DNA of 64,000 bases from Candidatus Krumholzibacteriota bacterium. GTDB taxonomy: Bacteria; Krumholzibacteriota; Krumholzibacteriia; Krumholzibacteriales; Krumholzibacteriaceae. The stretch's first letter is position 1, and every line of letters begins with the position of its first letter. Positions 5,022-64,000 of this stretch are shown here, one piece after another. The position numbers and the translations under genes were made by a program. The notes beneath the pieces are model-generated. The model made no database searches. It saw nothing but the letters and a program-made list of their open reading frames with translations, and was not told the DNA's origin. Location: assembly GCA_016932415.1 (NCBI GenBank), contig JAFGCX010000034.1, positions 9,002-73,001 of the forward strand, in the 5' to 3' direction.

Positions 5022-5031
5022 GGAAAAAATC

Positions 5032-31428: not shown

Positions 31429-31560
31429 CCGGTACCGTTCCTGCCACAGCCGCTTGCCGTCCGATCTCCCCGGTCCTCTCCGAAGGCGGGCAGCCAAAAA
31501 AAAATATAAAATCAATCAAGTTGTCGGGTAGTCCATCCGAATATCCTTCATAGACAGAAT

Positions 31561-33060: not shown

Positions 33061-33071
33061 ATCATACTTAC

Positions 33072-33099
33072 TTGACAGCCGGATTATTTTTCCTATAAT
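33072..33099 (+). promoter_or_regulatory. Consensus sigma70 promoter of the riboflavin operon
   Basis: TTGACA - 16 nt - TATAAT read directly, immediately upstream of the FMN riboswitch. Confidence 0.7.
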
Positions 33100-33117
33100 T
33101 GTGATACAGGTAATATT

Positions 33118-33250
33118 ATACCTGATAGACCTTCGGGGCGGGGTGAGATTCCCCACCGGCGGTGACAGTCCGCGAATGGATGTAAAAATCCACTGACCCG
33201 GTGAAATTCCGGGACCGACAGTTAAAGTCTGGATGGGAGAAGGTTCAGGA
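33118..33250 (+). ncRNA. FMN riboswitch (RFN element)
   Basis: Near-consensus RFN aptamer: CTTCGGGGCGGGGTGAGATTCCCCACCGGCGGT...AGTCCGCGAA...GACCCGGTGAAATTCCGGGACCGACAGTTAAAGTCTGGATGGGAGAAGG, upstream of ribD. Confidence 0.9.
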
Positions 33251-33338
33251 ACTTCTGCGCGCGGATGACCAGCCAGGAGCGGACCGGCGCTTTTCTCATC
33301 ATTTCCCCGGTATAAAATTTTCATGGAGCCTGCGGATT

Positions 33339-40832: not shown

Positions 40833-40906
40833 TGTGGAAAGGGTCCAGGATCAGTTTGCCTGCCGATCTGCCGGACCCCGGCGAGGATATCAAGAAAGGG
40901 TTTTAC

Positions 40907-46142: not shown

Positions 46143-47101
46143 AAGGGAAAGTGGTAGTTACCGGAGCGGCGGGATTCATAGGATCCCACCTCTGTGAAAG
46201 ACTTCTCGGCGAAGGATATGAAGTGACCGGTATAGATTCGTTCACTGATTATTACGATCCGGCGAGAAAAAGGGAGAATATCAGCCATTCCCTTTCCAGA
46301 GACGGTTTTGATCTTGTCGAGGATGATTTAAACAGGTGTGACCTGCCGGCACTCTTCGATGGGGCGGCGGCTGTATTCCACCTTGCCGCCCAGGCGGGAG
46401 TCCGGAGAAGCTGGGGGAGCGAATTTTCCTTTTATATTGATTCAAATATCCTCGCTACCCAGAAGGTGCTCGAGGCTATTCGTGAGACCGGAGGCACCAG
46501 GCTCGTCTATTCCAGTTCAAGTTCAGTATACGGAGAGACGGAAGATCTCCCGATGAGCGAACAGCACCGTCTGAGACCGGTCTCTCCCTATGGAGCGACA
46601 AAGCTCTCCGGAGAAGACCTCTGCGAGCTTTACTCTTTCAATTTCGGGATCTCATTCGTCGCTCTAAGATACTTTACCGTATATGGTCCCAGGCAGAGGC
46701 CCGATATGGCTTTCAGCCGTTTTATCACGGCATCGCTCCAGGGTGGCGAGATCGAGATCTACGGTGACGGCAGGCAGACCAGGGACTTCACTTTCGTCTC
46801 AGACGCGGTCGAGGCGAATATTCTCGCTTCCAGATACGATGGAAAGGAGAAGATATTCAATATCGGGGGAGGGAGCCGAGTCTCCGTCCTCGAAGTACTT
46901 GATATTATCCGCAGGGAGACGGGAAAAGAGGTCAGTACGTTCTTCAAGGACAGAGCGAAGGGTGATGTCCTCGATACATGGGCAGATACTTCAAGAGCTC
47001 TGAATGAACTCGGATTCAAGCCTGAAGTAAAGCTTGAAGAGGGTCTGGCAAGAGAAGTCGAGTGGTACAAGGATCATATCAAAGCCCGGTCGGGGAGGTA
47101 G
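46139..47101 (+). CDS. NAD-dependent nucleotide-sugar epimerase/dehydratase (extended SDR)
   Basis: Rossmann GAAGFIGSHL, catalytic YxxxK (SPYGATK), about 320 aa. Confidence 0.85.
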   Translation: MKGKVVVTGAAGFIGSHLCERLLGEGYEVTGIDSFTDYYDPARKRENISHSLSRDGFDLVEDDLNRCDLPALFDGAAAVFHLAAQAGVRRSWGSEFSFYIDSNILATQKVLEAIRETGGTRLVYSSSSSVYGETEDLPMSEQHRLRPVSPYGATKLSGEDLCELYSFNFGISFVALRYFTVYGPRQRPDMAFSRFITASLQGGEIEIYGDGRQTRDFTFVSDAVEANILASRYDGKEKIFNIGGGSRVSVLEVLDIIRRETGKEVSTFFKDRAKGDVLDTWADTSRALNELGFKPEVKLEEGLAREVEWYKDHIKARSGR

Positions 47102-47105
47102 GGAT

Positions 47106-48047
47106 TTGGATACTGGCAAAAAACACAATATTTCGGTCGTCATTCCTCTCTATAACGAAGAAGAAAGCATAGAAGAACTTTATTCCCGGCTTGTTTCAGT
47201 ACTCGGAAAAGTGTCGGGGGATCTCGAATTGATATTCATTGACGACGGTTCCAACGATGGCTCGTTGAATATCATCCGAAAGCTCCGTGACGGCGATACG
47301 AGGGTCAAGATAATCAGTTTCAACAGGAATTACGGGAAATCTCCCGCTCTTTCGGAAGGTTTCGAAGCGGCAAAAGGAGATATCGTCGTCACGATCGATG
47401 CTGATCTGCAGGACAATCCCGACGAGATCCCGGGAATGATCGAAAAACTCGAACTGGGGTACGACCTCATCTCGGGTTGGAAGAAAAACAGGAAAGATCC
47501 GATCACCAAGACCCTTCCTTCAAAAGTCTTCAATTTTTTCGCGGCGATGATAACCGGTATCAAGCTTCACGACATCAATTGCGGGTTGAAGGTCTACAGG
47601 CGTGAAGTGGTAAAGCGGATCGATGTATATGGAGAGTTGCACAGGGTCATCCCGGTCCTGGCCGGCTGGGAAGGCTTCCGGATCGGTGAACACCGCGTCA
47701 GCCATTTCGAAAGAAAGTATGGACGCAGCAAATACGGAATGAAAAGATTTCTAAACGGGATATTCGATCTCACGACAGTGATGTTCATAACCCGCCGGTC
47801 GACTACCCCTCTTCATTTTTTCGGAAGAATAGCGGTTTTTTTCTTCACCGTCGGCGGCCTGATAAATCTATACTTTTTCTTTCAGTGGATCTTTGGAAAA
47901 GGGCTTCACGTGCGTCCGCTTATGGTCGGTGGCCTGATCATGCTTATAATCGCGGTACAGATAGGTTCGATCGGCCTGCTTGCCGAACTCTACTCATCGA
48001 ATCTCAAACGCACCTATTCCTATCGCGAGTACCTGATAGATGATTGA
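47106..48047 (+). CDS. GT2 polyprenol-phosphate glycosyltransferase (GtrB/ArnC/DPM1-like) with two C-terminal TM helices
   Basis: ISVVIPLYNEEESI, DDGSNDGS, TIDADLQD (DXD) motifs; two C-terminal TM helices typical of GtrB/ArnC/CsbB; TTG 47106 after a GGGGAGG RBS. Confidence 0.8.
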   Translation: MDTGKKHNISVVIPLYNEEESIEELYSRLVSVLGKVSGDLELIFIDDGSNDGSLNIIRKLRDGDTRVKIISFNRNYGKSPALSEGFEAAKGDIVVTIDADLQDNPDEIPGMIEKLELGYDLISGWKKNRKDPITKTLPSKVFNFFAAMITGIKLHDINCGLKVYRREVVKRIDVYGELHRVIPVLAGWEGFRIGEHRVSHFERKYGRSKYGMKRFLNGIFDLTTVMFITRRSTTPLHFFGRIAVFFFTVGGLINLYFFFQWIFGKGLHVRPLMVGGLIMLIIAVQIGSIGLLAELYSSNLKRTYSYREYLIDD

Positions 48048-50097: not shown

Positions 50098-50317
50098 TTC
50101 CGTTGCTTCGGGGACGCGGCCCGCCATGCGTATCTCTTCCTGAATCCGCAAATCATCCGTTCTCCGTGACCGGTTCCGGAACGATCGGTGTCCCGATCCC
50201 GCCACGCCACGCGGGAGAACCGGCAGGTAAAGATGATAGATTTTGAAGGTTTACTAGGATAGTGGAAAATGTTATTATTATTGAAATTGTAAAATATAAC
50301 CTTTGAGGAGGCTGTAT

Positions 50318-52789
50318 TTGTCAAAAAATATCAGATCTGGCGATCAGAAGCGGCGCGAGTTTGATCCGGATCAGTTTCTCGATAATGCTGCCGGTTGGCG
50401 AAGGGGTATTCTGGTCGCGCTATTTCTTGTCGTTGTGCTGGCGATCGTCATGCCGGAATTGATCTTTCATGGGGATATTTTTCTTGTTCCCGACACAAAG
50501 GCTCCGATCAGTTTCAGCGAAGTCGGCAGGGAATATCTTGAATCGGGAAAATATCCTTTGTGGAACCCGTATATATTCTGCGGAATGCCGAGTTATCCCA
50601 GCCTGTCGTATACTCCGTATGTCTATCCGATCGCCTATGTGACTTATATTCTTCAAAGATATCTCGGATTCCCCGAGATGACATGGCTGCTGGTCCATTA
50701 CATCCTGGCAGGAATGGGAATATATCTTCTTCTCCGTTCCTTTGGGGTGAGGAGTTCGATCTCGATGCTGGCAGGTGGCCTTTTCATGATCATGCCTAAT
50801 CTTGTCGCGAACGGAGCTAACGGGCATGGTTCCCAGGCGTGCGCGGTCGCATATATGCCCTACGTATTTCTGTTCTGCAGGAATATATTGACCGGCAGAG
50901 GAAGGGTCGTAAACACTGCCTTTCTCGCCATTGCCCTTGGTTTTCAGATGCTGAGGGGGCATGTTCAGATATCGTATTATACATATCTCATCACAGGCCT
51001 TCTTTTTATTATGGAGACGATCCGCCTTGCCCGGACGGGAAAGGGGAAAGAGATCGCGGTGAACTCTGGATTCATTTTCGCGGCGGTCATTCTTTCGGCA
51101 GGTATAGCGGCAGTGCTGATCTTTCCGGTGAGGGAATATGCCGATTATTCGATACGAGGCGGAACAGGCGGGGGGCTGGACTATGATTACGCCACCGGGT
51201 GGAGCCTTCCTCCGAAGGAATTGCTTACCCTAATCTTTCCGTGGGCGTCAGGTTTCGGAAAAATGACATACTGGGGCGGGATGCCTTTTACCGATTATCC
51301 GAATTATCTCGGGATTGTCACTGCGGTCTTTTCGGTTATCGGTTTTTTTATCGTACGCAGCAGATGGAAGTGGTATCTGGCCGTGATCATCATAGTGGCG
51401 ACTTTTGTCAGTTTTGGCAGGTTTATGCCGGTCCTGTACGACCCGCTCTTCAGGCTTCTGCCCTTTTTCAATAAATTCCGTGTCCCGGTGATGATCCTGA
51501 TTGTACAGCAACTGGCCGTTACAGTCCTTATGGGACTGGCTATAGAGGAATATCTTCAGCTGGTTGCCAGGGACGAGCTGCCAGCGATCCTTAAAAAAGA
51601 AAGTTTAAAATGGGGCCTTCTCGCGGCGGTCGCCCTCTTTCTCCTCGTCATCGCCGCTTCAGGCAGCATAAAACAGGATCTCGCGGCAAGCGAGGCGATA
51701 AGAAGCAGGGTCCGTCCAGAGTGGATAATGATGGCAGTCTCAGCCTATTCGTCTGATCTGGTGAGAACTTTATTTTTTCTCGTCGCGACCATAGCCACTC
51801 TCTTTTTCGTATCCTGGAAGAGGCCGAAGGGCTCTCTTGCCATCATCATCCTTTCAGTCCTGTTGCTTTTTGATATTATTTCCGTGGACCGATCGATCGT
51901 GCATCCGGAAAGTACGTGGAACAACAGCGGGTACAGGATCGTCAGACCGGTAACGGCGAGGGAAAGGTACAAGGAACCCGGTGTCATGGCGAAATATCTA
52001 GCCGCGGACACCACTTTTTTCAGGGTCTTTCCCGTTCCCGCTTCAAGGCCTGGAAGCTGGAACCACAGCACTTTCCCTTTCAGCGACAATAGCTATATGA
52101 TGTCGGGGATATTCTCCATGGGGGGATATCACGCAGCCAAGCTCAAAAACTACCAGGATGTGATGGATCTTCTTTTCGCTACATTCAACAGGGGCGTCGT
52201 TCCGAAACAGATATTGAATATGCTCGGAGCGAAGTATTTTCTGTCGATGCATCCGGTCTTCCCGGAAGGATCGGAATATCCTCTGATCTATCAGAAAGAT
52301 AAAAACTACATCTACAGAAATCCAGAGGCTCTTCCCAGGGTCTATTTCGTCGACAGGATCAAGTTGATGACAAAAGAAGACGCGCTCCTTTCGCTGACGT
52401 CGAATGCATTTGATCCCTCACGCGAAGTGATCCTGCAGGCGATGCCCGATGGAGAGATAGATTCAGCCGGAGGAAGCAGAGCCGAGATCACGGCGTATGA
52501 TCTTAACACGATCAATATAGAGGCTCATGTCGAAAAGTCATGTATAATGGTCGTCAGCGAGGTAGACTATCCCGACTGGAAAGTCACCATTGACGGCAGA
52601 GAAGGCGATATCCTGACGGCGAATTACTGTTTAAGAGCGATAGAGCTTCAGCCGGGAGAACATCGGATCGAATTCACATTTGAATCCCCGGTCCTGAACA
52701 GATCACTGATGCTTTCGATAATCTCCATCGCGATAGCTCTGTCAACCGTTATCATCTCATTTCTCGTCACTGGCAGAAAGGGGGATTGA
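50318..52789 (+). CDS. YfhO-family GT-C membrane glycosyltransferase
   Basis: About 825 aa polytopic membrane protein with YfhO-like N-terminal motif GKYPLWNPYIFCGMPS and large C-terminal extracytoplasmic domain; TTG 50318 six nt after GAGGAGG is preferred over the track start 50303, which overlaps that RBS. Confidence 0.7.
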   Translation: MSKNIRSGDQKRREFDPDQFLDNAAGWRRGILVALFLVVVLAIVMPELIFHGDIFLVPDTKAPISFSEVGREYLESGKYPLWNPYIFCGMPSYPSLSYTPYVYPIAYVTYILQRYLGFPEMTWLLVHYILAGMGIYLLLRSFGVRSSISMLAGGLFMIMPNLVANGANGHGSQACAVAYMPYVFLFCRNILTGRGRVVNTAFLAIALGFQMLRGHVQISYYTYLITGLLFIMETIRLARTGKGKEIAVNSGFIFAAVILSAGIAAVLIFPVREYADYSIRGGTGGGLDYDYATGWSLPPKELLTLIFPWASGFGKMTYWGGMPFTDYPNYLGIVTAVFSVIGFFIVRSRWKWYLAVIIIVATFVSFGRFMPVLYDPLFRLLPFFNKFRVPVMILIVQQLAVTVLMGLAIEEYLQLVARDELPAILKKESLKWGLLAAVALFLLVIAASGSIKQDLAASEAIRSRVRPEWIMMAVSAYSSDLVRTLFFLVATIATLFFVSWKRPKGSLAIIILSVLLLFDIISVDRSIVHPESTWNNSGYRIVRPVTARERYKEPGVMAKYLAADTTFFRVFPVPASRPGSWNHSTFPFSDNSYMMSGIFSMGGYHAAKLKNYQDVMDLLFATFNRGVVPKQILNMLGAKYFLSMHPVFPEGSEYPLIYQKDKNYIYRNPEALPRVYFVDRIKLMTKEDALLSLTSNAFDPSREVILQAMPDGEIDSAGGSRAEITAYDLNTINIEAHVEKSCIMVVSEVDYPDWKVTIDGREGDILTANYCLRAIELQPGEHRIEFTFESPVLNRSLMLSIISIAIALSTVIISFLVTGRKGD

Positions 52790-52790: not shown

Positions 52791-53507
52791 TTGAAGGCTC
52801 TGGTCGTGATTCCAACATATAACGAGAACGAGAATATCAGAAATATAATCAAAGCCGTTCTGAGTCAGGATGAGGGGGTGGATATTCTCGTCATAGACGA
52901 TAATTCTCCGGATGGTACCGGAGCTATCGTTGATGAACTAATCGTATCGGAACCGAGGATCCATGTCATCCACCGGAAGGGGAAGCTTGGGCTGGGGTCT
53001 GCGTATATAGCCGGATTCAAATGGGCGCTGGCCAATACTGACGCGAAATATATTTTCGAGATGGACGCGGATTTTTCCCATGATCCTGGCGACATAAAAT
53101 TTTTTCTCGAGGCGATCAAGGATAACGATCTCGTCATTGGATCGAGATATCTCAATGGGATCCGGGTCGTAAACTGGCCGCTCAGCAGATTGATCCTCAG
53201 CACCGGAGCGAATATATATACCGGAATCGTTACCGGGCTTCCCCTGAAAGATTCAACCGGCGGGTTCAAATGTTTCCGTCGCGAGACACTGGCCGGCCTT
53301 CCTCTTGATACGATCAGGAGTGACGGCTACTCTTTTCAGATAGAGATGAATTTCTTCTGCTGGAAAAAAGGTTTCAGGATAAGGGAAATACCAATAATAT
53401 TTTCCGACAGGAGAGTCGGCGTTTCGAAGATGTCAAAAAAGATAATATGGGAAGCGGCGTTCATGGTCTGGCGCCTGAGGTTCATGTCCCCGCGGCGATG
53501 GAAGTAA
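52791..53507 (+). CDS. Polyprenol-phosphate mannose synthase-like GT2 (Ppm1/DPM1-like, soluble catalytic domain)
   Basis: VVIPTYNENENI, IDDNSPDGT, EMDADFSHDP (DAD) motifs; 238 aa with no C-terminal TM; TTG start. Confidence 0.8.
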   Translation: MKALVVIPTYNENENIRNIIKAVLSQDEGVDILVIDDNSPDGTGAIVDELIVSEPRIHVIHRKGKLGLGSAYIAGFKWALANTDAKYIFEMDADFSHDPGDIKFFLEAIKDNDLVIGSRYLNGIRVVNWPLSRLILSTGANIYTGIVTGLPLKDSTGGFKCFRRETLAGLPLDTIRSDGYSFQIEMNFFCWKKGFRIREIPIIFSDRRVGVSKMSKKIIWEAAFMVWRLRFMSPRRWK

Positions 53508-55583
53508 ATGGATCTTTCAATAATAATCATTACGCACAACAGCCTTGTCCCGGTCGAAAAGTGTCTGGAATCCCTCGAGGCCTGCCCTCCCTCGGGCAGC
53601 TACGAGACGATCGTCATCGATAACGCCAGCAGTGACGGTTGCGCCGACATGATAGAGGAGTCGTTTCCCAGATGCATGGTGATCAGAAACGAGGAGAACA
53701 GGGGATACTCCCGCGGGGTCAATCAGGGGATCGATCTTTCGATTTCGGAATTGATACTCATACTCAATCCCGATATCGAGGTGAGAGACGGTTCCATCGA
53801 CAGGCTCGCCCGGTTCATGAACGATAATCGATCGGCAGGTATGGCTGGATCGAAGCTCCTCTATCCCGATGGACGGCTACAATATTCCTGCCGGGCTTTT
53901 TACACAATAAAGGCGCTTTTTTTAAGGCGGACGTTCCTTGGAAGGATCTTTCCGAAGGCGCGCGCTTTGAGAGAACATCTGATGATCGACTATGATCATG
54001 AGCAGGCGCGCAAAGTCGACTGGCTCATAGGCGCCTGTCTGATGGTCAGGCGGGAAGCGATAGAAAAGGTCGGCAAGATGGATGAAAGGTTTTTTCTCTA
54101 TTTTGAAGATACCGACTGGTGCTACCGGATGAATCAGCACGGATGGGATGTCTATTACATTCCCGATTCGGTGATGACGCACCGGTACGAAAGATCAAGC
54201 GCGAGGTCGGTATTTAAAAAGCCTTTTCTCATGCATCTTCTCAGTCTTCTGCGATATTACGAGAAATGGAATAAAATATTCTACTTTTTCAGGCGGCACC
54301 GGGGCGCCCTGAAATCAATCATATTCGCCGCGTCCGACCTTGTCGCGGCGAACGCGGGATTCTTCATAGCGTATTATCTGCGTGGTCTGTTCCAGTCCCT
54401 GTTTACAAACAGCCTGTATCCTCTCGACTGGTACGCTTTCTTTATCTACTTCTATAATTTTATCTTCTTTTTCACATTCCTCTTCGGCGGTCTCTACCAG
54501 ATCAGGAGGGAGACCGGGGCGGCCCTGGAGTTCTCGAGAGTCGCCAGGTCGGTCTTCGCCTCTTTCGCGATCCTGCTGGGAGCGACATATCTTACCCGGA
54601 TAAGGATATATTCCCGGGCTGTCCTTGGAGGACAGGCGCTGTTGAGCCTTATTCTCGTCTTTGGTTTCAGGAGGATCATCCGGCTTGTTCACAACCAGCT
54701 TGTCAGAGCCTCTTTTGACCTTAAAAGGGTCATCCTGGCAGGTGACGAGGATGAGGTAGAACGGTTCAGGGGACTTGTGCAGGCTGATCCGCATCTGGGA
54801 ATCGATGTCGTCGGAGATATTTCCGGTGGACCGGGATCTATCGGAAAGATGGAAGATCTCGAGAGTATAATCGACAGGTTCAAGATACAGGAGGTGCTGA
54901 TACTTCCATCGTATGTCGAGAGGGGCCTGATCTTTCCGTTCCTTTGCATTCATGGTACGCGGATGCTTGAGATAAGAATAGTGTCACCGGTCGCCAGATT
55001 CATGGGCAGGGAGGTCAGGGTCCAGAAGATCGGTGATAGTTATATGTTTTCCATCGAAAGAGGGACCCAGTTTCTACTTCTGAGATTATTGCAGCGTTTG
55101 TCCGATATCGTCACTGGCGCTGTTTTTCTCCCCCTGTCGGCAGTCTGTCTCTTTTTTTTCAGGATATCCGGAACGGCAGGTCGAAAAGCGTCGGTCTTTT
55201 CGGAAAAAAGGACAGGGTACAGGGAAAAGACAATAGACTGGCCGAGAATCATGACTCGATCAGGCAGGGAGGGATCGGACATGATCAAACCGGCACTCTG
55301 GGCCGATCTGCTGTTCGGGAGACTGGCTCTCGTGGGACCGCCACCTTCACCGGTATCTGATGACGGTGGTCACGCCGGCCCTGACGGAGGAATGAGGCCG
55401 GGGATAAGCGGAAGATGGAGGATCTCTCCCGAAGCTGACTGGAAAAAATCTTTCGAAAACGAGGTAATCGAAACTAGGACACGTTCAATCACTGATTATC
55501 TGGAGATACTTTTCAGGTCTGTCGGCATGTTTTTTTCAGGCAGATATCCGGAATGGTATTTTAACAAGGGGGATAACCCGTGA
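53508..55583 (+). CDS. Fusion protein: N-terminal GT2 glycosyltransferase + C-terminal membrane domain resembling polyprenyl-phosphate sugar phosphotransferase (WbaP/EpsB-like, divergent)
   Basis: N-terminal IIIITHNS, IDNASSDG, DxD-type GT2 about 260 aa; then 4-5 TM helices, a linker, and a Bac_transf-like C-terminus (PALWADLLFGRLALVGPPPSP, compare consensus LPQLxNVLKGDMSLVGPRP) in which the usual DE dyad and KFRTM motif are not recognisable. Confidence 0.6.
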   Translation: MDLSIIIITHNSLVPVEKCLESLEACPPSGSYETIVIDNASSDGCADMIEESFPRCMVIRNEENRGYSRGVNQGIDLSISELILILNPDIEVRDGSIDRLARFMNDNRSAGMAGSKLLYPDGRLQYSCRAFYTIKALFLRRTFLGRIFPKARALREHLMIDYDHEQARKVDWLIGACLMVRREAIEKVGKMDERFFLYFEDTDWCYRMNQHGWDVYYIPDSVMTHRYERSSARSVFKKPFLMHLLSLLRYYEKWNKIFYFFRRHRGALKSIIFAASDLVAANAGFFIAYYLRGLFQSLFTNSLYPLDWYAFFIYFYNFIFFFTFLFGGLYQIRRETGAALEFSRVARSVFASFAILLGATYLTRIRIYSRAVLGGQALLSLILVFGFRRIIRLVHNQLVRASFDLKRVILAGDEDEVERFRGLVQADPHLGIDVVGDISGGPGSIGKMEDLESIIDRFKIQEVLILPSYVERGLIFPFLCIHGTRMLEIRIVSPVARFMGREVRVQKIGDSYMFSIERGTQFLLLRLLQRLSDIVTGAVFLPLSAVCLFFFRISGTAGRKASVFSEKRTGYREKTIDWPRIMTRSGREGSDMIKPALWADLLFGRLALVGPPPSPVSDDGGHAGPDGGMRPGISGRWRISPEADWKKSFENEVIETRTRSITDYLEILFRSVGMFFSGRYPEWYFNKGDNP

Positions 55584-57907
55584 GACGGCTCTGTTCATTT
55601 TTCATCCTGATGTCGATACTGTCCACCGGCCAGGCAACGGCAGATCCAGGGGACTGGAATCTATTTCTCGATGCCAGCGCCGTAAACAGGATCACCTGTC
55701 TCGGCGACAGTCTCTGGTGCGGAACCAACGGAGGAATCCTGCTTTTCGACCTCACTGATTCGACTATGACACAGTTCTATTCCGGGCTGGGATTGAGATC
55801 GAATGAGGTGTCGGCTGTCGCGCTTGATCCAGAAGGCGTCCTCTGGGCGGCATTCAGGGGGGAGGGCCTGGTAAGGATCGAAAATATAGCGACAAACCCG
55901 GTAGTGAGCCATTACAACGAAAAATCGACACTCATCCTCAGCGACAGTATCAATTGCCTTCTCTCTGTCGATGAGGATGTATATTACGGCTCTGACAATG
56001 GAATAGCCAAATTTTTCGACAAGAGCCATTCCCTGGAACCGAATCTGTCCGATAACCTTGCTGGAAAAAGGATAAACGACCTGCTTCTTGACGATGAAAA
56101 CCGGTTGTGGGTCGCTCATGAAGATGGCGTGGCAAGCTTTGGCCGCGACACGTTCATTTTTACTGACTATCCCATAGGCACAGCGTTTTCGATCACTTTG
56201 CATGAAGGGATGATATATGCCGCAACCTCGACAGGGATAGCGAGATTGAACGGCGAGTCATGGGAGCAGTACGGGACGACTTTTCATAATGGTCTTCTCC
56301 CGGTAAGTATAGCTTCAGGTGGAGGCGAGATATACGCGGCGACCGAGGAGAGAGCGTACAGGCATAACGGGTCATACTGGGAGAGTATCGCCACCGCGCA
56401 GATGAAGGCTATGTTTCTCGACAATTACAGGATCGGTCAGTATCATCTCCGCTCTGTCGCGGTCGACGGGAGAGGTGACCCCTGGATCGGGGGAAGACTC
56501 CCGAGCGGTTCGTCGAGGGGAAGTTATATCTCCGGATTCAATGGCGAAGAATGGGTCAACAGAGCCCTGCCGACATTGAGTCAGAATGACGTCATTGCTA
56601 TCGGAATCGCCCCCGGAGGAGCGGTATGGTCGAGCACTCTCTACGGGATCAACTACAGATCCGGTACCGGTGACTGGATCAGGTATTCAAAGATAAGATC
56701 GGACACGGGAAATGATGACGCTCTTTCATATTTTGCCTACAACCTGGCGCTGCTTCATGATTCCGGTAATATCCTGTGGTGCAATTCTCTCAATTACGAC
56801 CTCGATATGATCGACCTGGGAAATATCTTCGATAAGGATGATGATATCTGGCGGCATTTCGCGATAGAGGATGGCAATACGATCACGACTGACAGGTTTG
56901 TAAAGGCAAAGGAAGACCCGGCCGGGAACAGGTGGTTTCTTTCCGATGACGATTATTACGAATCGAGCGGGATATGGGGAATAAATATCACCGACCAGTC
57001 AGCGGATCAGTGGTTCGCCGTAAATCCCCTTCTCAATCCTTCGATGAAAGGCGGCAATATCTTCGACTGCGTCTTCGATCAATTCGGAGTATATCTGGCC
57101 ATAAAGGGATTTGGAGTCCAGTACTGGAGAACGGGCGGGTTCAGCTGGAGTACACTTACTTCGGAGACCGGTGATATATGGCTCACGCTGATGGATGAAT
57201 CGAACCTTGTCAGTACGGAGATAGAAGCTATAGAGGTTGGAAGCGACGGAACGGTATGGGTCGGGACGGGAGGCGGCCTGGTCAGGTATCGCCAGGGTGA
57301 AATAGAGGTGTATACTGAAAAGGGAGAAGAGACCAATTACGGATTGATCGGACTTTCCGTGAGCGATCTCGAATTCGACAGTTTCGGAAATCTCTGGGTC
57401 GCGACAGACAAGGGACTGAACAGGATCGATGCCGACGGGATCATAGACGCGGCGTTTACTACCGCTACTTTCTGGGAGAACAATATACAGGCATTCTATT
57501 CAGAGTCGGTCATATCACCCCTTCCGAGTCATGTATGCCAGGTGCTGGCGTGTGATGCCGATGAGGATCTTCTCTGGATAGGGACCGACAGGGGCCTTGC
57601 ATCTTTCGACGTGAGGCCACTGGTACAGGTTTCGATCCCACTGTCTCGCGCTATACTCTACCCCAACCCGATACATATCGGCCGGGGTGATTCATCCCTT
57701 AAGATCTCACGCATCTCGGGAATCGTCGATATAAGCGTCTATAATCTGGAAGGAGAACTGGTGCATGAGATAGAGGGTGTCGCCGAGGGAGAGGATGCCT
57801 GGGATCTGCTTACGATAAACGGGTTCACTGCCCAATCCGGGATCTATATAGTAAGAATATCCGGAAGTTCCGGCATAGAGACAAGAAAGGTTGCGATTAT
57901 CAGGTGA
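55580..57907 (+). CDS. Secreted beta-propeller repeat protein with T9SS C-terminal sorting domain
   Basis: Signal peptide; many W/Y-rich sensor-propeller-like repeats (WVGT..GL..Y; LW.GTD.GL); C-terminus ILYPNPIHIG...ISVYNLEGELVHEIEG...AQSGIYIVRISGSSGIETRKVAIIR matches the T9SS type-A CTD pattern; GTG start overlapping the upstream stop. Confidence 0.7.
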   Translation: MRRLCSFFILMSILSTGQATADPGDWNLFLDASAVNRITCLGDSLWCGTNGGILLFDLTDSTMTQFYSGLGLRSNEVSAVALDPEGVLWAAFRGEGLVRIENIATNPVVSHYNEKSTLILSDSINCLLSVDEDVYYGSDNGIAKFFDKSHSLEPNLSDNLAGKRINDLLLDDENRLWVAHEDGVASFGRDTFIFTDYPIGTAFSITLHEGMIYAATSTGIARLNGESWEQYGTTFHNGLLPVSIASGGGEIYAATEERAYRHNGSYWESIATAQMKAMFLDNYRIGQYHLRSVAVDGRGDPWIGGRLPSGSSRGSYISGFNGEEWVNRALPTLSQNDVIAIGIAPGGAVWSSTLYGINYRSGTGDWIRYSKIRSDTGNDDALSYFAYNLALLHDSGNILWCNSLNYDLDMIDLGNIFDKDDDIWRHFAIEDGNTITTDRFVKAKEDPAGNRWFLSDDDYYESSGIWGINITDQSADQWFAVNPLLNPSMKGGNIFDCVFDQFGVYLAIKGFGVQYWRTGGFSWSTLTSETGDIWLTLMDESNLVSTEIEAIEVGSDGTVWVGTGGGLVRYRQGEIEVYTEKGEETNYGLIGLSVSDLEFDSFGNLWVATDKGLNRIDADGIIDAAFTTATFWENNIQAFYSESVISPLPSHVCQVLACDADEDLLWIGTDRGLASFDVRPLVQVSIPLSRAILYPNPIHIGRGDSSLKISRISGIVDISVYNLEGELVHEIEGVAEGEDAWDLLTINGFTAQSGIYIVRISGSSGIETRKVAIIR

Positions 57908-59331
57908 GAAGCTCGAGCAATAAGAAAATACTGGTAGTAGGGGCTGGCGAAGCCGGCCGGATGGTCCTGGGAGAGATAGAAGGACACCCGGAGATCGAAT
58001 CATCGGTGATCGGATTTCTTGATGACGACGATGAACTGGCGGGAAAAACGGTGCGATCCGTTCCCGTTCTAGGTACGACTGACCGGCTAGAGGAGATCGC
58101 CGCTTCGATGGATATCGATGAGGTCATCATCTCGGTGCCGACTGCTCCGGGACGATTCGTGCGGGAGATGATAAGGCGGTGCCGCAGGGCGGGAGTCGTC
58201 TACAGGATAGTACCCGGTGTGATGGAGATAATAAAGGGAGATGTCCACATCGACCAGATCAGGGATGTGCGCGTCGAAGATCTGCTTGGACGCGAAACGG
58301 TCAGTTTTGACCTGGAGTCGGCAAGATTGGAACTTTCCGGCAGGAAGATCCTGGTCACGGGGGCGGGAGGTTCGATCGGTAGCGAGCTTTGCAGGCAGCT
58401 CGCAAGAGTCGGACCGGAAGAACTGATCATACTCGGAAGGGGCGAAAACAGGATATTCATGATAGAGGAGGAGCTCAGGTCCTCTTTTCCCGGTTTGAGG
58501 ATATCTACTGTCATCTGTAACCTCACCGATATGGCAAAGATAAAAAGGATGATGAAGGAGATCGCTCCCGGTATCGTATATCATGCGGCGGCCCACAAGC
58601 ATGTCCATTACATGGAAAGGGACCCTTCAGAGGCGGTCATAAACAACGTCGCCGGAAGCATAAATGTAATCAGAGCCGCTGAAGAGTGTGGAGTCGAACG
58701 TTTCGTGTTCATATCGACCGATAAGGCGGCGGATCCCGATGGAGTGATGGGAGCGACAAAGAGAATAGTAGAGCTTTACCTCGGGTCTTACAGCGATCAC
58801 AGCAGGTGCAGGTATATCACTGTGAGATTCGGAAACGTGATAGGGAGCGCCGGAAGTGTTGTTCCTCTTTTTCTCAGGCAGATCGGATGGGGAGGTCCGG
58901 TAACGGTAAGTGACGCCCAGGCGACAAGGTTTTTCATGACGGTAAAAGAAGCTGCTTTTCTTGTCATAAGGTCATCGCTCATCGGCAACGGAAAAGAGAC
59001 ATTTATCCTCGATATGGGAGAGCCTCTGAATATCTATGAGATGGCGAAAGATATAATAATGTTGACCGGTCATGAACCGGAGACCGAGATCCCGATCAGG
59101 ATGTCAGGCTTGCGTGACGGGGAAAAACTCCATGAAGTCCTCGTAAGTAAAAATGAACAGCTTAAGCCTTCCGGTGAGGACAAGATCCTCATTGCCAGTT
59201 CAATTGAGAGACCTCCAGAGGGCCTGGAACGTATGATATCGGAGATGATCGAGGCCGCGGGAAAAGGGGACGATGGCGCAGTGCTTGGATTGATGTCGAG
59301 TATCATTCCCGGATTCGACCGCGGGGACTGA
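57904..59331 (+). CDS. Nucleotide-sugar 4,6-dehydratase (CapD/PglF/WbpM-like, Polysacc_synt_2), soluble form
   Basis: N-terminal CoA-binding-like domain, then extended-SDR domain with second Rossmann TGAGGSIGSEL; GTG start. Confidence 0.8.
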   Translation: MRSSSNKKILVVGAGEAGRMVLGEIEGHPEIESSVIGFLDDDDELAGKTVRSVPVLGTTDRLEEIAASMDIDEVIISVPTAPGRFVREMIRRCRRAGVVYRIVPGVMEIIKGDVHIDQIRDVRVEDLLGRETVSFDLESARLELSGRKILVTGAGGSIGSELCRQLARVGPEELIILGRGENRIFMIEEELRSSFPGLRISTVICNLTDMAKIKRMMKEIAPGIVYHAAAHKHVHYMERDPSEAVINNVAGSINVIRAAEECGVERFVFISTDKAADPDGVMGATKRIVELYLGSYSDHSRCRYITVRFGNVIGSAGSVVPLFLRQIGWGGPVTVSDAQATRFFMTVKEAAFLVIRSSLIGNGKETFILDMGEPLNIYEMAKDIIMLTGHEPETEIPIRMSGLRDGEKLHEVLVSKNEQLKPSGEDKILIASSIERPPEGLERMISEMIEAAGKGDDGAVLGLMSSIIPGFDRGD

Positions 59332-59354
59332 CGGTCAGATGACAGAACGAGGCC

Positions 59355-60311
59355 GTGGTGAATATTGAGATCGAATATGATATCGACAAGGAAGAGATAA
59401 GCGAATTCATCGGATCATGCCGGGGTGCGACCTATTTTCATTCCCCTTCCTGGATGAATATCCTGGTCCGCGCTTTTCCGCGTTTCAGGGGAGGATGGAT
59501 AACGGCACGTGACGGGAAGTCGCTACGCGGCGTCATGCCTTTTATAAGGATAGACAGGGGAGCGGTATTCTCGATATGGTCGATGCCGTTCGGCACCTAC
59601 GGAACGCCTCTTTGCGAGCGGGAGAGCGTCAGGCTGGCTCTCGTCGACAGGTTTTCACAGATAGCCGGATCGTCACGCTGCGCGGAGGCTGTGGCATCTC
59701 TTTTCGAGATCGACGGCGGCGACGGGAGTATGATCGGAAAGGCCGTGGTGGACAGGAACGAATGCAGCCTGATAATGCTCGATGGTGATTTCACCGAGTA
59801 CAGGTCGAAGAGGCTCAGCAGGAAAAAAAGGCAGATATGCAACGGATGCGAGAAGGATGGAGTAGAGATCAGGCTGATTGAAAAAGACGAAGACCTGTCG
59901 ATTTTCTATGACATATATTTTTCGGGGTCGACGGGGTGGGGAGGCGTCCACCCCTATCCCAGGGAGTTTTTCAGGGAGCTTTTTAAAAGAAGGGATGAAG
60001 GGATCCTTTTCTGGGGAGCGTTCGTCGAAGGACGGATGCTTGGAGGACATATCGATATTTATTATAAATCGATGGCGCAGGCATGGCAGGCCGGGATCTC
60101 GGACGAGTCCCATTCGGCCGGGATCGCCTGCTACCTCGTGTACAGGGCAGTAGAAGAGGCTTATAAAAGGGAAGTAAAGGTCTTCAATCTCGGAAGCAGC
60201 TGCGGGGACAGCGGGATGCTGTTCTTTAAAAGATCGATGGGAGGGATCGAACACATTTATCCCGAACTGAGAATTCGAAAGAAATGGTGGAAATGGCTCA
60301 CGAGGAAATGA
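59355..60311 (+). CDS. FemAB-family / GNAT-fold acyltransferase (Acetyltransf_6-like)
   Basis: Sequence pattern (YFHSPSWMNIL..., G(G/A)HIDIYY, VKVFNLGSS) resembles FemAB/BioF2-like GNAT proteins found in some polysaccharide loci; assignment from memory only. Confidence 0.5.
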   Translation: MVNIEIEYDIDKEEISEFIGSCRGATYFHSPSWMNILVRAFPRFRGGWITARDGKSLRGVMPFIRIDRGAVFSIWSMPFGTYGTPLCERESVRLALVDRFSQIAGSSRCAEAVASLFEIDGGDGSMIGKAVVDRNECSLIMLDGDFTEYRSKRLSRKKRQICNGCEKDGVEIRLIEKDEDLSIFYDIYFSGSTGWGGVHPYPREFFRELFKRRDEGILFWGAFVEGRMLGGHIDIYYKSMAQAWQAGISDESHSAGIACYLVYRAVEEAYKREVKVFNLGSSCGDSGMLFFKRSMGGIEHIYPELRIRKKWWKWLTRK

Positions 60312-61831
60312 GGAAAGGGAGATCGAAGATCGCTGGGAATTCCATCTCCCTGGCCGTGTCCGGAGCCGGTGGGATGTTGTTCACCCTCGTTCAACTCAGC
60401 ATTCTCAGCAGGACGCTTGAGGGAGATCTTTTCGGCGCATTCGTCGTTCTTAAAGGCTTTTCCCTTTTTCTCGCCACAATCATCCTTATCGGTCTTCCCC
60501 AGGTGATAATCAGATTCTTTCCCTCGTACCAGAACCGGGGAGAGAACGGCAAAGCGCTGAGACTTTTCGTAGTATCATCGATCGTCGTTCTTGTCCTTGG
60601 TTCCTCGATCTATTTATCCATAGGACGATTGAAGGCTCTCCTGCCGGACGCGCAGAGCGTTTTCTCGACCGACGAGATACTCTACTGGATGGTGATCTCC
60701 TCCATTACCGTGGCATTGAAATTGATACTGTACGGAGGATTCAACGGATTGCGGGAGATGCGCACGCAGATGTACTTCGAGATATCTTATCTCGCCGTGC
60801 TTACCGCTCTGATCGTGTTTTTCCAGGATTCCCTTTCCCTCACCGCGCTTTTCAGGATGATATCGTTGCTGAATGGAATTGTCTACGTGGCAGGAGCGCC
60901 GGTCCTGTTAAATATGATCGGCAGGATGAATGCTTCCACCGGGACAGGGGATGCCGCGCGAGTCGTCCAGCCGGTTTTTTTATCTTATATGGGTTATTCG
61001 CTCGTACTCAGTTTTGTGGCGTTGGCCTTTACTGATTTCGACAGGTTTGTGATGTCATCCGTCCTGCCGTTGTCGGCGATTTCGATATTTCACGTCGCGT
61101 CGAGGATTAACAGCCTGATAAAAAGATTTCTCGGATTTCCCGTTATCGCGCTTCAGCCCGAAGTCACCAGGATCTACGAAGAGGGAAGATGGGAACAGCT
61201 CCCGGAGAAGATCACATTGTTCACGAAGACTACGGTGATAGCCGCTTTCTTTTTTTCCGTCCTTGCCGCCTTGGCCGGTAATGATGTCATCCTTCTTCTG
61301 AGCGGGAAAAAATACGAAGCAGCGTACCCGGTCATGCTCGTGCTGCTCGCCGGCGTGCCTATTGCCGCATTCATAGCCCCTGTCCTGACGACGATGAGGG
61401 GGCTCAATCATATCAAGTGGGCGGCTCTCTGCGATTTCCTGTGGATGGCGGTATATTTCGGTTCGTTCTTCATATTCGTTACGATCTGGGGCGTGACGGG
61501 GATGGCTATCGCGCAGGTTCTGGCATCAATCGTGCAAATGGCCGCGGCGGTCGCGCTTTCGAAGAAAGAGGGGTTCTACGGAGGACTGGGAAAAAATACG
61601 GTCAAGGCGATCATCTTTATTCTGCTTCTGGCCATCCCGCTGATAATGGTGACTCGATACCTTGGAATATACGCTGTCATATCAGCCATGGTATTTTCCC
61701 CTCTTATCCTTAGGATCCTGCTGGTGAAGCTGAGAATATTCGAATCGGCCGAGATAGCCGTCTTAAAGGGAATGATACCTCAGAGAGCAGGCCAGAGATT
61801 CATGGTATGGTTGATCGATCCGGAGGCCTGA
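60308..61831 (+). CDS. Polysaccharide/oligosaccharide flippase (MOP superfamily, Wzx-like)
   Basis: 12-14 TM helix protein with Wzx/PST-family N-terminal pattern; ATG 60308 overlaps the upstream stop (ATGA). Confidence 0.75.
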   Translation: MRKGRSKIAGNSISLAVSGAGGMLFTLVQLSILSRTLEGDLFGAFVVLKGFSLFLATIILIGLPQVIIRFFPSYQNRGENGKALRLFVVSSIVVLVLGSSIYLSIGRLKALLPDAQSVFSTDEILYWMVISSITVALKLILYGGFNGLREMRTQMYFEISYLAVLTALIVFFQDSLSLTALFRMISLLNGIVYVAGAPVLLNMIGRMNASTGTGDAARVVQPVFLSYMGYSLVLSFVALAFTDFDRFVMSSVLPLSAISIFHVASRINSLIKRFLGFPVIALQPEVTRIYEEGRWEQLPEKITLFTKTTVIAAFFFSVLAALAGNDVILLLSGKKYEAAYPVMLVLLAGVPIAAFIAPVLTTMRGLNHIKWAALCDFLWMAVYFGSFFIFVTIWGVTGMAIAQVLASIVQMAAAVALSKKEGFYGGLGKNTVKAIIFILLLAIPLIMVTRYLGIYAVISAMVFSPLILRILLVKLRIFESAEIAVLKGMIPQRAGQRFMVWLIDPEA

Positions 61832-63136
61832 TTGAATCGAAAAAAGATATTGATGATGATAAATTTTTTCCCGCCATCGGCGGGAGGAGGAGTGTACCGT
61901 CCATTATCATTTGTACGGTATCTTTCCGGATCAGGATGGGACGTGACGGTGATCACCCCGAGACCCGGGGAATTCTGGATAAATGATCCCGGACTGGAAA
62001 GCAAAGTACCGCCGGAAGTCCGTGTTATAAGGACGAAGTCTTTCTCCGGTCAGAGGATCCTCGCAAACCTTGGAAAAGGAAAGCAGAGTGGCTCATCGAG
62101 ATCTTCATCACGCTTCGGCCTGATGAGAAAAGCCGGTGAGTTCGTGCTGATTCCCGACACCTATGTCGGATGGGTCCCTTTTGCGGCCGGCGCGGCCGCG
62201 AAGCTATGCCGGTCTGAAAGATTCGATATGATATATTCGACAAGCCCGCCGGACAGCACCCATCTCGCAGCGGGAAGGACCTCGAGAAGGTTTCATCTTC
62301 CATGGGTAGCGGATTTTCGTGATCCATGGATCTCTCTCTATCTCAGAGATCCCGCGACGCCTATCCACGCGGCGATCCATAAAAATCTGGAAAAGCGGGT
62401 TTCAGCCGCGAAGCTCGTTCTCGTGACGACTACATGGCAGAAAGAGAAGCTTCTCTCTCTTTTTCCTTCATGCCGGGTCGAGAAGATCCCGAACGGTTAT
62501 GAGGAAGAGGATTTTCCCGAAGGTTTGGCGATCCCGGACGGCGACGGAAAGTTGAAGATCGTGCACGCCGGGATGCTTACCCTTGGAAGAAGTTCGCGGC
62601 CTTTTCTCGAAGGATTGAGGCTTTTTCTCGACCGAAGACCCGGTGCCGGAGAATCTGTAGAAGTGACCTTTATCGGACCAAGGGAGTCGGCCAATGAGGA
62701 ATGGGTCGGAAGGCTCGGCCTCGGTGGCAACGTCAGGTTCCGTGATAATATCGCTCACAGCGAATGCGTAAATATCGAGAGGGCAAGTGATCTGCTTCTG
62801 CTGATAAAACATGACGATCCGAGATATACAGGTCTGGTTCCCGGAAAACTTTTTGAATATATAGGAGCTAGGCGTCCCATTCTCGCCATCGCTCCCGATG
62901 GAGAGGCAGCTTCGATAGTCAGGGATCTGAATCGGGGAGAGGTTGTTCCGGCAGGTGACAGGGAGGCTGTCGCGGCAGTTATCGATAAGTTCTTTATCCT
63001 GCATAAAGAGGGCAGGCTGGGCAGTTCATATTCCCTCGGCGTGGTCAGGGAATATTCACGCCGTGTTCTCGCTGGAAAGCTCGAACTGTTGTTAAGGAGT
63101 ATCGCGGGAAACGACCATAGTCTCGGAGAGGCGTGA
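61832..63136 (+). CDS. Glycosyltransferase (GT4-like, GT-B fold)
   Basis: N-terminal glycosyltransferase-4-like subdomain (KILMMINFFPPSAGGGVYRPLSFVRYLSGSGWDVTVITP) and C-terminal GT-B half. Confidence 0.7.
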   Translation: MNRKKILMMINFFPPSAGGGVYRPLSFVRYLSGSGWDVTVITPRPGEFWINDPGLESKVPPEVRVIRTKSFSGQRILANLGKGKQSGSSRSSSRFGLMRKAGEFVLIPDTYVGWVPFAAGAAAKLCRSERFDMIYSTSPPDSTHLAAGRTSRRFHLPWVADFRDPWISLYLRDPATPIHAAIHKNLEKRVSAAKLVLVTTTWQKEKLLSLFPSCRVEKIPNGYEEEDFPEGLAIPDGDGKLKIVHAGMLTLGRSSRPFLEGLRLFLDRRPGAGESVEVTFIGPRESANEEWVGRLGLGGNVRFRDNIAHSECVNIERASDLLLLIKHDDPRYTGLVPGKLFEYIGARRPILAIAPDGEAASIVRDLNRGEVVPAGDREAVAAVIDKFFILHKEGRLGSSYSLGVVREYSRRVLAGKLELLLRSIAGNDHSLGEA

Positions 63137-63221
63137 ACGGATATCAGAAGGCCTGCGGGGCGCGTCTTTCAGGAGTAGCGTGATATGACCATCGATGGAG
63201 AATGATCGAATGGAAAGAGCG

Positions 63222-64000
63222 ATGAAGAGAAGCGATTATCTGGTCGTCACGGCATCTGTCGCGTTGATGATAATACTTGCCCTGCCACTCAGGGGTTCGA
63301 TCACCGACGATACGTATATACATATGCAGTACGCGCGTAATCTGGTCGAAGCGGGTGAACTCTCATTCAACAGGGGGGAGCCGACCTATGGCGCTACCAG
63401 TCCACTCTGGGTCCTCCTTCTCGCCACGGTGTACCGGCTCGGTGGCGAGATGGCTCTGTGGAGCAGGATACTTTCGCTTTTTTTCGGCGTAGCTTCGATA
63501 TATATGGTCTACAGGTTTATGATCGCGATCGGGATGGGGAGTTATCCTTCCGCGATAGCCTCGGCGATCTTCGCTTCGGAAGCATGGGTGATACGATGGA
63601 GTATGGTCGGAATGGAATCATCGATGGCAGTTTTCATCGTGATAGCCGCAGTAATGGCAGCTCTGGGAGCTACACGTTCGTTGAGGAGGTCGATGCTGTT
63701 TGGAGCCCTTCTCTTCCTTGCCTATCTTGCCAGACCTGAAACACTTTTGCTACTGCCCCTTTCCCTGATCTCATTCAGCCTCTTTCGCGGCGGCGCCGGA
63801 GGGGCTCGTCGATATGGGTGGCTGCTGATATTTATTCCCGCGATCGTCATCTGGTTCCTTGTGATAAGGGATCATACAGGCACGTGGTTCCCTCTGACTG
63901 CCGGTGCCAAGCAGGGAACGTTCGATTTTTCTCCTGTTCTGCTGACCAGGATGCTCGTCCCGGTAAAAATCCTTTCAATGAGCGTCGGGATCGCGATAAT
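63222..64000 (+). CDS. Integral membrane protein, possible GT-C-type glycosyltransferase (3' end outside window)
   Basis: Open frame from ATG 63222 to the window end, absent from the ORF track because it has no stop; multiple TM helices; acidic DDTYIHMQYARNL motif just after TM1, similar to the DDxY/DExY first-loop motifs of ArnT/PMT-type GT-C enzymes. Confidence 0.5.
   Translation, partial: MKRSDYLVVTASVALMIILALPLRGSITDDTYIHMQYARNLVEAGELSFNRGEPTYGATSPLWVLLLATVYRLGGEMALWSRILSLFFGVASIYMVYRFMIAIGMGSYPSAIASAIFASEAWVIRWSMVGMESSMAVFIVIAAVMAALGATRSLRRSMLFGALLFLAYLARPETLLLLPLSLISFSLFRGGAGGARRYGWLLIFIPAIVIWFLVIRDHTGTWFPLTAGAKQGTFDFSPVLLTRMLVPVKILSMSVGIAI

Follow-up and report, generated by a model that had tools for sequence, protein, structure and literature searches.

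Most surface-glycan pathways of bacteria have a monotopic phosphoglycosyl transferase (PGT) as their gatekeeper, and the feature by which these enzymes are defined is taken to be an Asp-Glu dyad. The locus described here raises the question of what a protein built like such an enzyme, but lacking this dyad, might do. The window (the whole 64,000-nt stretch of Candidatus Krumholzibacteriota DNA that was analysed) contains an open reading frame (ORF) at 53508..55583 on the + strand, whose product of 691 amino acids (aa) joins a family 2 glycosyltransferase (GT2) to a membrane module resembling the large PGTs (Lg-PGTs) typified by WbaP. The protein is identical to an entry from a Candidatus Krumholzibacteriota metagenome-assembled genome (MAG) that is named merely 'glycosyltransferase'. 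An earlier sequence-only reading had seen in it either a very divergent initiating PGT or an inactivated scaffold. Our analysis favours the scaffold and disfavours the divergent active enzyme, because nearly all invariant charged active-site residues have been lost in three independent clades, their replacements are clade-specific and non-acidic, and the core has eroded further elsewhere. The reading that we prefer, with confidence a little better than even for the mechanism as a whole, is that an active WbbL-related GT2 is held permanently by an Lg-PGT module that has lost its catalytic function and would serve as a pseudo-PGT scaffold.

That the C-terminal half is homologous to a WbaP-type Lg-PGT is certain. 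A relation of the C-terminus to Bac_transf had been suspected, and Pfam bears it out with a partial PF02397 match (27.6-32 bits against a cutoff of 27) that covers aa 600-676 and profile positions 96-178 only. When the last ~187 residues of the family were compared by hhalign with 60 canonical Lg-PGT catalytic domains, a match of 99.8% probability (E 1.6e-27) was obtained over 176 columns, and a HMMER search of PDB sequences with the family profile returned both WbaP (E 5.6e-11) and PglC (E 1.9e-9). The family profile was needed for this; a single-sequence phmmer search of PDB with the C-terminal half gave no match. TIGR03025 and TIGR03023, which model WbaP, WcaJ and exopolysaccharide (EPS) sugar transferases, align over aa 276-576, both of them sub-cutoff (TIGR03025 at 95.6 bits, far under its cutoff of 295). 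An AlphaFold2 (AF2) model built with the family alignment (predicted local distance difference test, pLDDT, 84.1; predicted template modelling score, pTM, 0.72) places in order a GT-A domain, two juxtamembrane helices, four transmembrane (TM) helices, a beta/alpha domain, a long hydrophobic helix and a compact C-terminal domain. Foldseek matched the full model to Salmonella enterica WbaP (8T53) with E 3.5e-12, and when the C-terminal half was modelled alone (pLDDT 82.7) this structure alone in PDB matched significantly (E 9e-12 over 439 columns).

The GT2 half is a standard catalytic domain, as had been proposed. It matches PF00535 (aa 4-188, E 6e-22, 78.7 bits against a cutoff of 23.3) and PF13641 (aa 3-233), finds GT-A folds by Foldseek, and carries intact D38-N39, N87-P88-D89 and E200-D201-x-D203-W204 motifs that are (near-)invariant across the family, with D38, D89, E200-D201 and D203 invariant. 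It shares conserved DxD-like and ED-x-D motifs with the WbbL-type GT2 rhamnosyltransferases, which act on polyprenyl-diphosphate-linked acceptors. However, its match to TIGR01556, the best in NCBIfam, reaches 77 bits against a cutoff of 200.55, so the domain is predicted to be related to that subfamily without belonging to it, and unlike those peripheral enzymes it is joined to a membrane module. The juxtamembrane helices that follow carry conserved H243, S246, R249, Y250, E252, K253 and W254. The 4-5 TM helices that had been counted in the C-terminal 430 aa resolve, by AF2 and hydropathy, into four TM helices (265-294, 306-326, 338-362 and 370-400) and one strongly hydrophobic re-entrant helix. 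Signature residues of the bundle (D277, R292, Y309, Y330, S369-R370, R388) and of the next domain (G412) are those invariant in canonical Lg-PGTs, and the accessory module is therefore under its usual constraint.

What had been taken for a cytoplasmic linker is instead folded: a Pfam match above cutoff (aa 328-437, E 6.5e-9, 36.5 bits against 25), the beta/alpha pattern of the AF2 model (406-516) and the Foldseek match to WbaP identify it as the conserved PF13727/CoA_binding_3 domain of Lg-PGTs, with G412, G431 and G436 conserved as in the canonical enzymes. In the re-entrant helix, R530-x-x-D533 and P542, the putative helix breaker, are conserved and hydropathy peaks at 531-557; the helix (520-556) is continuous by DSSP in the AF2 model. 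This is the Lg-PGT architecture, PF13727 domain included, that has been described for WbaP (PMC10942596). The fusion thus resembles WbaP/WcaJ-type Lg-PGTs such as S. enterica WbaP in its four-helix bundle, PF13727 domain, re-entrant helix, Bac_transf core and signature residues. It differs from them in the GT2 added N-terminally, in the deletion of ~40 core residues, and in having no Asp-Glu, KFRTM, DPRxT, LR or Arg of GPRP.

The loss of the catalytic centre was followed by several alignment methods. MAFFT L-INS-i reproduced the alignment of IKPALWADLLFGRLALVGPPP with DELPQLxNVLKGxMSLVGPRP proposed by the sequence-only reading, and placed I593-K594 on the Asp-Glu columns of DELPQ. In hhalign and HMMER the whole canonical block is left in a gap; by HMMER the flanks alone align to WbaP, and WbaP 329-387 (59 aa, running KFRTM ... 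DPRxT ... LR ... DELPQ) stands against 21 family-specific residues, and in the focal clade the deleted ~40 residues are those that carry DPRxT, LR and DE. KFRTM is replaced by W578-P579-R580, R580 being the single Arg that survives at or beside its positions, and GPRP has become GPPP, with Pro in place of Arg. The earlier remark that neither the dyad nor KFRTM could be recognised was therefore correct, and every alignment method used ruled out that the dyad is intact and the protein an ordinary fusion of WbaP type. In PglC the dyad, Asp93-Glu94, is the biochemically defined active site (PMC10186338).

For the remaining positions we took the columns that 53 canonical PGTs conserve at 80% or more and compared them with the three dyad-less clades. 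The calls were taken from MAFFT L-INS-i, as hmmalign to the canonical hidden Markov model (HMM) gave split local alignments, and the roles of residues beyond the dyad rest on conservation in these 53 sequences rather than on cited mutagenesis. Lost in all three clades are the Lys and Arg of KFRTM, the Asp and Arg of DPRxT, the Arg of LR, the Asp-Glu dyad itself, the Gln of PQ, the Arg of GPRP and a later invariant Arg. By the same comparison K-R-x-x-D and R568 are retained, as are glycines, prolines and the hydrophobic skeleton. What replaces the dyad depends on the clade and is acidic in none: (I/V/F)-K in the focal clade, V-N in a clade marked by GPSD[IL]VNLPLF, and S-V or S-R in the Eisenbacteria clade, which keeps the neighbouring helix and Pro in register (LRRFTLRHGLSVFPSVINVLKGEMSFVGPQA). 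A change of WQ to WR is common to all three. As judged from sequence, the fusion has neither the Asp-Glu dyad nor the KFRTM, DPRxT, LR, PQ and GPRP motifs of an active monotopic PGT, and canonical PGT chemistry is probably absent from it. It belongs to PF02397 by descent, but in view of these missing catalytic features it should be filed neither as a PGT nor as a functional bifunctional PGT (Bi-PGT). With the second domain present and the PGT core stripped of its catalytic residues, it is predicted to be a derivative of the Bi-PGT class and not a functional member.

The fused architecture is real, as the sequence-only reading had stated, but it is not the one-off that 'unusual' would imply. 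At least 119 full-length homologues were found: among the matches listed in an indexed search, 119 of 120 were full length (640-720 aa) at 49-73% identity, with listed lengths of 684-712 aa. An exhaustive search with aa 261-691 yielded 505 cluster representatives at E <= 1e-3. Asp-Glu was missing at the canonical match states in 143 of the 148 retrieved relatives of at least 600 aa and present in 5. The 80 species-representative loci, in which the dyad is likewise lacking, belong to Krumholzibacteriota, Eisenbacteria, Latescibacteria, Fibrobacteraceae and Effluviviaceae, and the missing dyad is a trait of a conserved, syntenic family across phyla of the Fibrobacterota-Chlorobiota-Bacteroidota (FCB) group, not of one decaying gene. 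A 57% identical fusion with full Krumholzibacteria-type synteny was also seen in a locus labelled 'Patescibacteria group bacterium' (L006, DATKWS010000038.1); this label, like 'Bacteroidales' for P0007 and 'Gemmatimonadetes' for L069 and L085, is probably a binning or taxonomy error.

Conservation is uneven along the protein. Mean entropy is lowest in the GT2 half (0.94 bits) and highest in the dead PGT-like domain (2.03 bits), which is the least constrained part. Nevertheless, ~25 near-invariant positions remain in that domain; its motifs are G604, LVG610-P-P, RPGI(S/T)G635-x-W-R638, E652, S671 and a family-specific G678-x-Y-P-x-W-F. Further and differing erosion of the PGT-like core was observed in other lineages (L048, L057, L056, L059, L064, L070, L081 and L082), some of which have deleted the beta-hairpin and central block and others of which keep only LxGRLxLxGP and PGLTGPW remnants. 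The GT2 halves of these lineages still score 274-311 bits. Low conservation of the Bac_transf-like region and lineage-specific deletions are what would be expected if the C-terminal part were a functionless decaying remnant, a pseudogene-like tail or an artefact of assembly or annotation. However, the frame is intact in the 119 listed homologues, the near-invariant positions include G-x-Y-P-x-W-F, the fold is modelled confidently (pLDDT 82-84) and the domain has been retained over several phyla. A pseudogene or artefact was therefore rejected on grounds of conservation, and we regard a functionless tail as extremely improbable.

The few exceptions are informative as to origin. Four canonical full-length relatives (P0172, P0197, P0239 and P0262) have KFRTM, DE[LI]PQ and GPRP, and canonical motifs are likewise found in L062 (Desulfatiglandales MAG, CAXXLN010000004.1), 32% identical over query residues 3-678. 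True bifunctional GT2-Lg-PGT enzymes thus exist as full-length homologues of the fusion. They have the same domain order and length as the focal family but keep the catalytic motifs that it has lost, and they lie in a different gene context, without the YfhO, small GT2 or PorZ-like genes described below. L062 and L005 are both full-length fusions of this kind, with KFRTM, DEIPQ and GPRP and other neighbours. A bifunctional GT2-Lg-PGT of this type would have been the ancestor, and its phosphosugar-transfer centre would have been lost in the line from which Krumholzibacteriota, Eisenbacteria, Latescibacteria and Fibrobacteraceae descend, while the four-helix bundle, PF13727 domain, re-entrant helix and fold skeleton were retained. 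That the dyad was lost only once is only suggested, by the shared WQ to WR change and by synteny. The neighbour-joining (NJ) tree of the PGT-like half is saturated, with the bipartition uniting all dyad-less sequences recovered in 76 of 100 bootstraps and absent from the point tree, and was not relied on.

If the fusion does not prime, another enzyme might be expected to do so. The sequence-only reading had seen no other priming enzyme, and we found none: six frames of the window contain no second Bac_transf domain, and a Pfam scan of 50 window ORFs, among them all those of at least 300 aa except antisense ORFs inside annotated genes, gave no match to Glycos_transf_4 (WecA/MraY). The search was extended to ~10 kb about the fusion in 85 related loci. 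In these 1.35 Mb a canonical DE..PQ is carried only by two canonical fusions, and a check at motif level found no MraY/WecA hallmark.

This absence is one of several points that weigh against a dead module. That ~80 genomes show no other PGT near the cluster would have a neat explanation if synthesis were primed by the fusion itself, and the inactivity of the PGT half is itself inferred from sequence alone. In the remodelled segment that replaces the catalytic block, the focal clade conserves the charged residues R580, R587, E588, D591 and K594, of which E588, D591 and K594 are 97-99% conserved, and the V-N clade too conserves Asp591, which lies two residues upstream of the column of the canonical Asp; this charged motif could be a relocated catalytic or binding site. 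Moreover, the Foldseek hits do not include PglC, and those to WbaP have low global TM-scores (0.36-0.38). Together with the existence of canonical bifunctional relatives, the conserved charges and the missing primer would suit a true bifunctional enzyme that both primes the carrier lipid and attaches the second sugar, its PGT-like domain still initiating at a non-canonical site with Asp591 as relocated nucleophile, Glu588 as metal ligand and Arg580, Arg587 and Lys594 as phosphate binders. However, E588 is confined to the focal clade, and in the Eisenbacteria clade, whose synteny is unchanged, the D591 column is occupied by Gly and the dyad by S-V, without an acidic residue to stand in. With at least eight invariant charged residues lost together, the ~40-aa core block deleted, still more of the core gone in other clades and the PGT-like domain the least constrained part of the protein, we consider a divergent active PGT unlikely.

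The gene directly upstream offers a different way of accounting for the missing primer. It encodes a small GT2, the catalytic domain of a dolichyl-phosphate mannose synthase (DPMS)-like enzyme, which ends one base ahead of the fusion start. Its best NCBIfam matches, AglJ and PpgS, are both sub-cutoff. No hydrophobic segment was found in it, and it is thus without the DPMS membrane anchor. Nearly all loci have it directly upstream of the fusion, even among relatives at 28-33% identity, and since a DPMS catalytic domain without TM segments is found beside the fusion nearly everywhere, it may need a membrane partner. Anchorless polyprenyl-phosphate mannose synthases are known to be anchored by separate membrane subunits or domains, as in human DPM1 with DPM2/DPM3 and in mycobacterial Ppm1. 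The likeness is that a TM-less DPMS catalytic domain is encoded beside a membrane protein that might anchor it and give it access to lipid; the difference is that the putative anchor here would be a dead PGT fused to another GT2.

From this context a pathway with no PGT step can be drawn. The glycan would be built on polyprenyl monophosphate, as with Haloferax AglJ: the small GT2 would dock on the dead module and make polyprenyl-P-hexose, and the fused GT2 would elongate it before flipping and use by GT-C enzymes. The DPMS identity of the small GT2 (5MLZ), its AglJ- and PpgS-like matches, its lack of a TM segment, its constant position, the three or four GT-C enzymes and flippase-like protein in the cluster and the lack of a PGT nearby would all fit. 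However, such a pathway rests entirely on gene context. A Wzx and a PglF-like dehydratase, both present in the cluster, typify diphosphate-linked pathways; enzymes of the TIGR01556 type, to which the fused GT2 is related, use diphosphate-linked acceptors; and the genome may simply have a PGT gene at another place. We find the PGT-free route doubtful. An elaborated form, in which the dead module is the hub of a bacterial PGT-free lipid-linked pathway, is distinctly unlikely. In that form the DPMS-like GT2 would dock and charge polyprenyl monophosphate, the fused GT2 would elongate it as in the case of archaeal AglJ, the product would be a surface glycolipid or linker handled by the PorZ-like T9SS protein (T9SS, type IX secretion system) in Krumholzibacteriota, Eisenbacteria, Latescibacteria and Fibrobacteres, and R580, E588, D591 and K594 would form a new polyprenyl-phosphate-sugar binding site.

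A further possibility concerns the PF13727 domain. WbaP is a beta-hairpin-swapped homodimer through this domain, which has been assigned a nucleotide-sensing regulatory role with inhibition by uridine monophosphate (UMP), while the function of the WbaP accessory domains has been called still unclear (PMC10942596). The dead core and PF13727 domain of the fusion could accordingly be mainly a sensor of nucleotide or substrate that allosterically tunes the GT2 or pathway flux. Retention of the domain and its signature residues would agree with this, as would the co-conserved PglF-like dehydratase, two genes downstream, which has the same domain. However, a sensor leaves the retained re-entrant helix and core skeleton unexplained, and it is compatible with a scaffold rather than exclusive of one; as the main role we think it improbable.

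Under the scaffold model that we prefer, the dead module would hold the GT2 at the cytoplasmic face of the inner membrane, possibly as a dimer by analogy with WbaP, and would probably still bind a polyprenyl-phosphate-linked substrate. The GT2 would then transfer the next sugar onto a lipid-linked glycan that a different enzyme has primed; candidates for the primer are the anchorless DPMS-like GT2 just upstream and a PGT encoded at another place in the genome. The product would feed a conserved envelope-glycan pathway with YfhO, TMEM260-like GT-C, Wzx and the PorZ-like T9SS protein. Coordinates of the fusion, its parts and its co-conserved neighbours are listed below.

Features of the fusion ORF and of the genes conserved with it (positions in the window; Lg-PGT domain names as in the text; DUF, domain of unknown function)
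Feature	Position	Strand	Extent in protein	Basis or remark
Whole ORF: GT2 + Lg-PGT-like module	53508..55583	+	691 aa	
GT-A fold GT2 catalytic domain, WbbL/rhamnosyltransferase-related type (predicted)	53508..54218	+	aa 1-237	Pfam, entropy, Foldseek
Juxtamembrane amphipathic helices	54219..54296	+	aa 238-263	AF2 helices 238-254 and 256-263; invariant columns
Four-helix TM bundle	54300..54707	+	aa 265-400	AF2, hydropathy, residues shared with canonical Lg-PGTs
Cytoplasmic Rossmann-like domain, PF13727/CoA_binding_3 'DUF' of Lg-PGTs	54717..55055	+	aa ~404-516	Pfam, AF2
Re-entrant membrane helix equivalent	55065..55175	+	aa 520-556	Hydropathy, AF2 helix, K-R-x-x-D in all clades
Remodelled segment W-P-R-x4-S-G-R-E-x2-D-x2-K-P-x-L	55239..55298	+	aa 578-597	In place of ~59 canonical core residues
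Codons of I593-K594, at the Asp-Glu dyad positions of canonical monotopic PGTs	55284..55289	+	aa 593-594	MAFFT alignments
Remaining Bac_transf-like core	55299..55580	+	aa 598-691	PF02397 match aa 600-676, conservation
YfhO-like GT-C membrane glycosyltransferase, co-conserved	50303..52789	+		PF09586; synteny
Polyprenyl/dolichyl-phosphate hexose synthase catalytic domain (small GT2)	52791..53507	+	238 aa	PDB 5MLZ E 1.2e-32; synteny
PorZ-like beta-propeller	55580..57907	+	775 aa	Reg_prop, Por_Secre_tail (T9SS sorting domain), signal-like N-terminus; synteny
PglF/PseB-like 4,6-dehydratase, FemAB-like acyltransferase, Wzx flippase, GT4	57904..63136	+		Family matches, synteny

The fusion sits in a tightly packed + strand cluster with intergenic gaps of -68 to +205 nt. 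From the 5' end this comprises a GT4, a flippase-like LPG_synthase_TM gene, two TMEM260-like GT-C enzymes with tetratricopeptide repeats (TPR), an epimerase and an ArnC/PgfS-like GT2 with TM helices; then a GT4, a WbbL-like GT2, the YfhO-like GT-C, the small GT2 and the fusion; and finally the PorZ-like propeller, the PglF/PseB-like dehydratase, the FemAB-like acyltransferase, Wzx, a GT4 and a membrane protein. The start of the PorZ-like gene overlaps the stop of the fusion by 4 nt; its match to the PorZ model NF052228 (84 bits) is sub-cutoff. Gene order is identical in a complete genome whose fusion is 53% identical and in a contig whose fusion is 49% identical, and the pairing of small GT2 with fusion, or of fusion with propeller, persists at 28-33% identity. 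Across the 80 species-representative loci the block of YfhO, small GT2, fusion and PorZ-like gene is nearly universal.

Several genes of the cluster merit separate description. The flippase-like LPG_synthase_TM gene (39870-40832) precedes two tandem paralogues on the + strand, 40832-43474 (880 aa) and 43581-46142 (853 aa), which are TMEM260-like (protein O-mannosyltransferase-like) GT-C proteins with C-terminal TPR. The ArnC/PgfS-like GT2 ORF (47034-48047) overlaps the epimerase (46139-47101) by 68 nt and its Pfam domain begins at aa 34, so its true start is probably further downstream. The dehydratase (57904-59331, +) is a PglF/PseB-like UDP-GlcNAc 4,6-dehydratase with a PF13727 domain and no TM bundle, and this domain might pair with that of the fusion; no aminotransferase was seen in the cluster. 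The polytopic membrane protein of ~500 aa at the cluster end (63189-64000, +) runs off the window and has no confident family. Its orthologue at L001:19746-21278 has a weak PMT_2 match (E 0.004), and it may be a fourth GT-C enzyme. In another related locus (L002), mraZ-rsmH, the start of the dcw cluster, comes after the glycan cluster.

Two known systems share parts of this gene content. Three-component periplasmic glycosylation employs a GtrB/CsbB-type GT2, a flippase and a YfhO/GT-C enzyme, and the cluster has an ArnC/GtrB-like GT2, a flippase-like protein and YfhO. The second is the anionic lipopolysaccharide (A-LPS)/T9SS cargo-anchoring pathway of Porphyromonas gingivalis, which includes WbaP, GtfC, VimA, VimF, PorS and PorZ (PMC7468200). 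PorZ is the protein that delivers A-LPS in the T9SS. Here the cluster offers a PorZ-like protein (by the sub-cutoff match), a FemAB-like acyltransferase, Wzx and GT4; however, its WbaP-like component would be catalytically dead. We treat this parallel, drawn from gene content, as a possible lead.

Elsewhere in the window, recA-recX-alaS, ribosomal proteins, selA, smc, ftsY and a riboflavin operon come before the glycan cluster. Also upstream are genes for a Wza-like export protein (4879-6498), a UbiA prenyltransferase (7137-8027), a phosphomannomutase (14124-15419) and a mannose-1-P guanylyltransferase (15474-16553). All 2-kb bins show positive GC skew and almost every real gene is read from the + strand, so the window seems to be leading-strand DNA of a single replichore. 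A minus-strand ORF of 602 aa (31516-33324) with no family match lies opposite a clear gene for a methyl-accepting chemotaxis protein (CHASE8-HAMP-MCPsignal; 31561-33060, +) and is most likely a shadow ORF.

Full-text literature searches found no pseudoenzyme or catalytically inactive protein of PF02397, and the papers found on Krumholzibacteriota do not address the fusion; the pseudo-PGT family is apparently undescribed. A phylum-spanning family with the architecture of an Lg-PGT minus its catalytic centre would, by the literature searched, be the first described pseudoenzyme of the superfamily. Automated reconstruction of pathways in these candidate phyla would misassign the priming enzyme, since the proteins reach or almost reach the PF02397 threshold and bear the name 'sugar transferase'. 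The family also draws attention to an uncharacterised gene cluster for envelope glycan, deeply conserved among uncultured phyla of the FCB group, with YfhO, TMEM260-like GT-Cs and a PorZ-like T9SS protein. Lastly, it would provide a natural case of separation of function, showing which parts of an Lg-PGT (TM bundle, PF13727 domain and re-entrant helix) stay for non-catalytic reasons.

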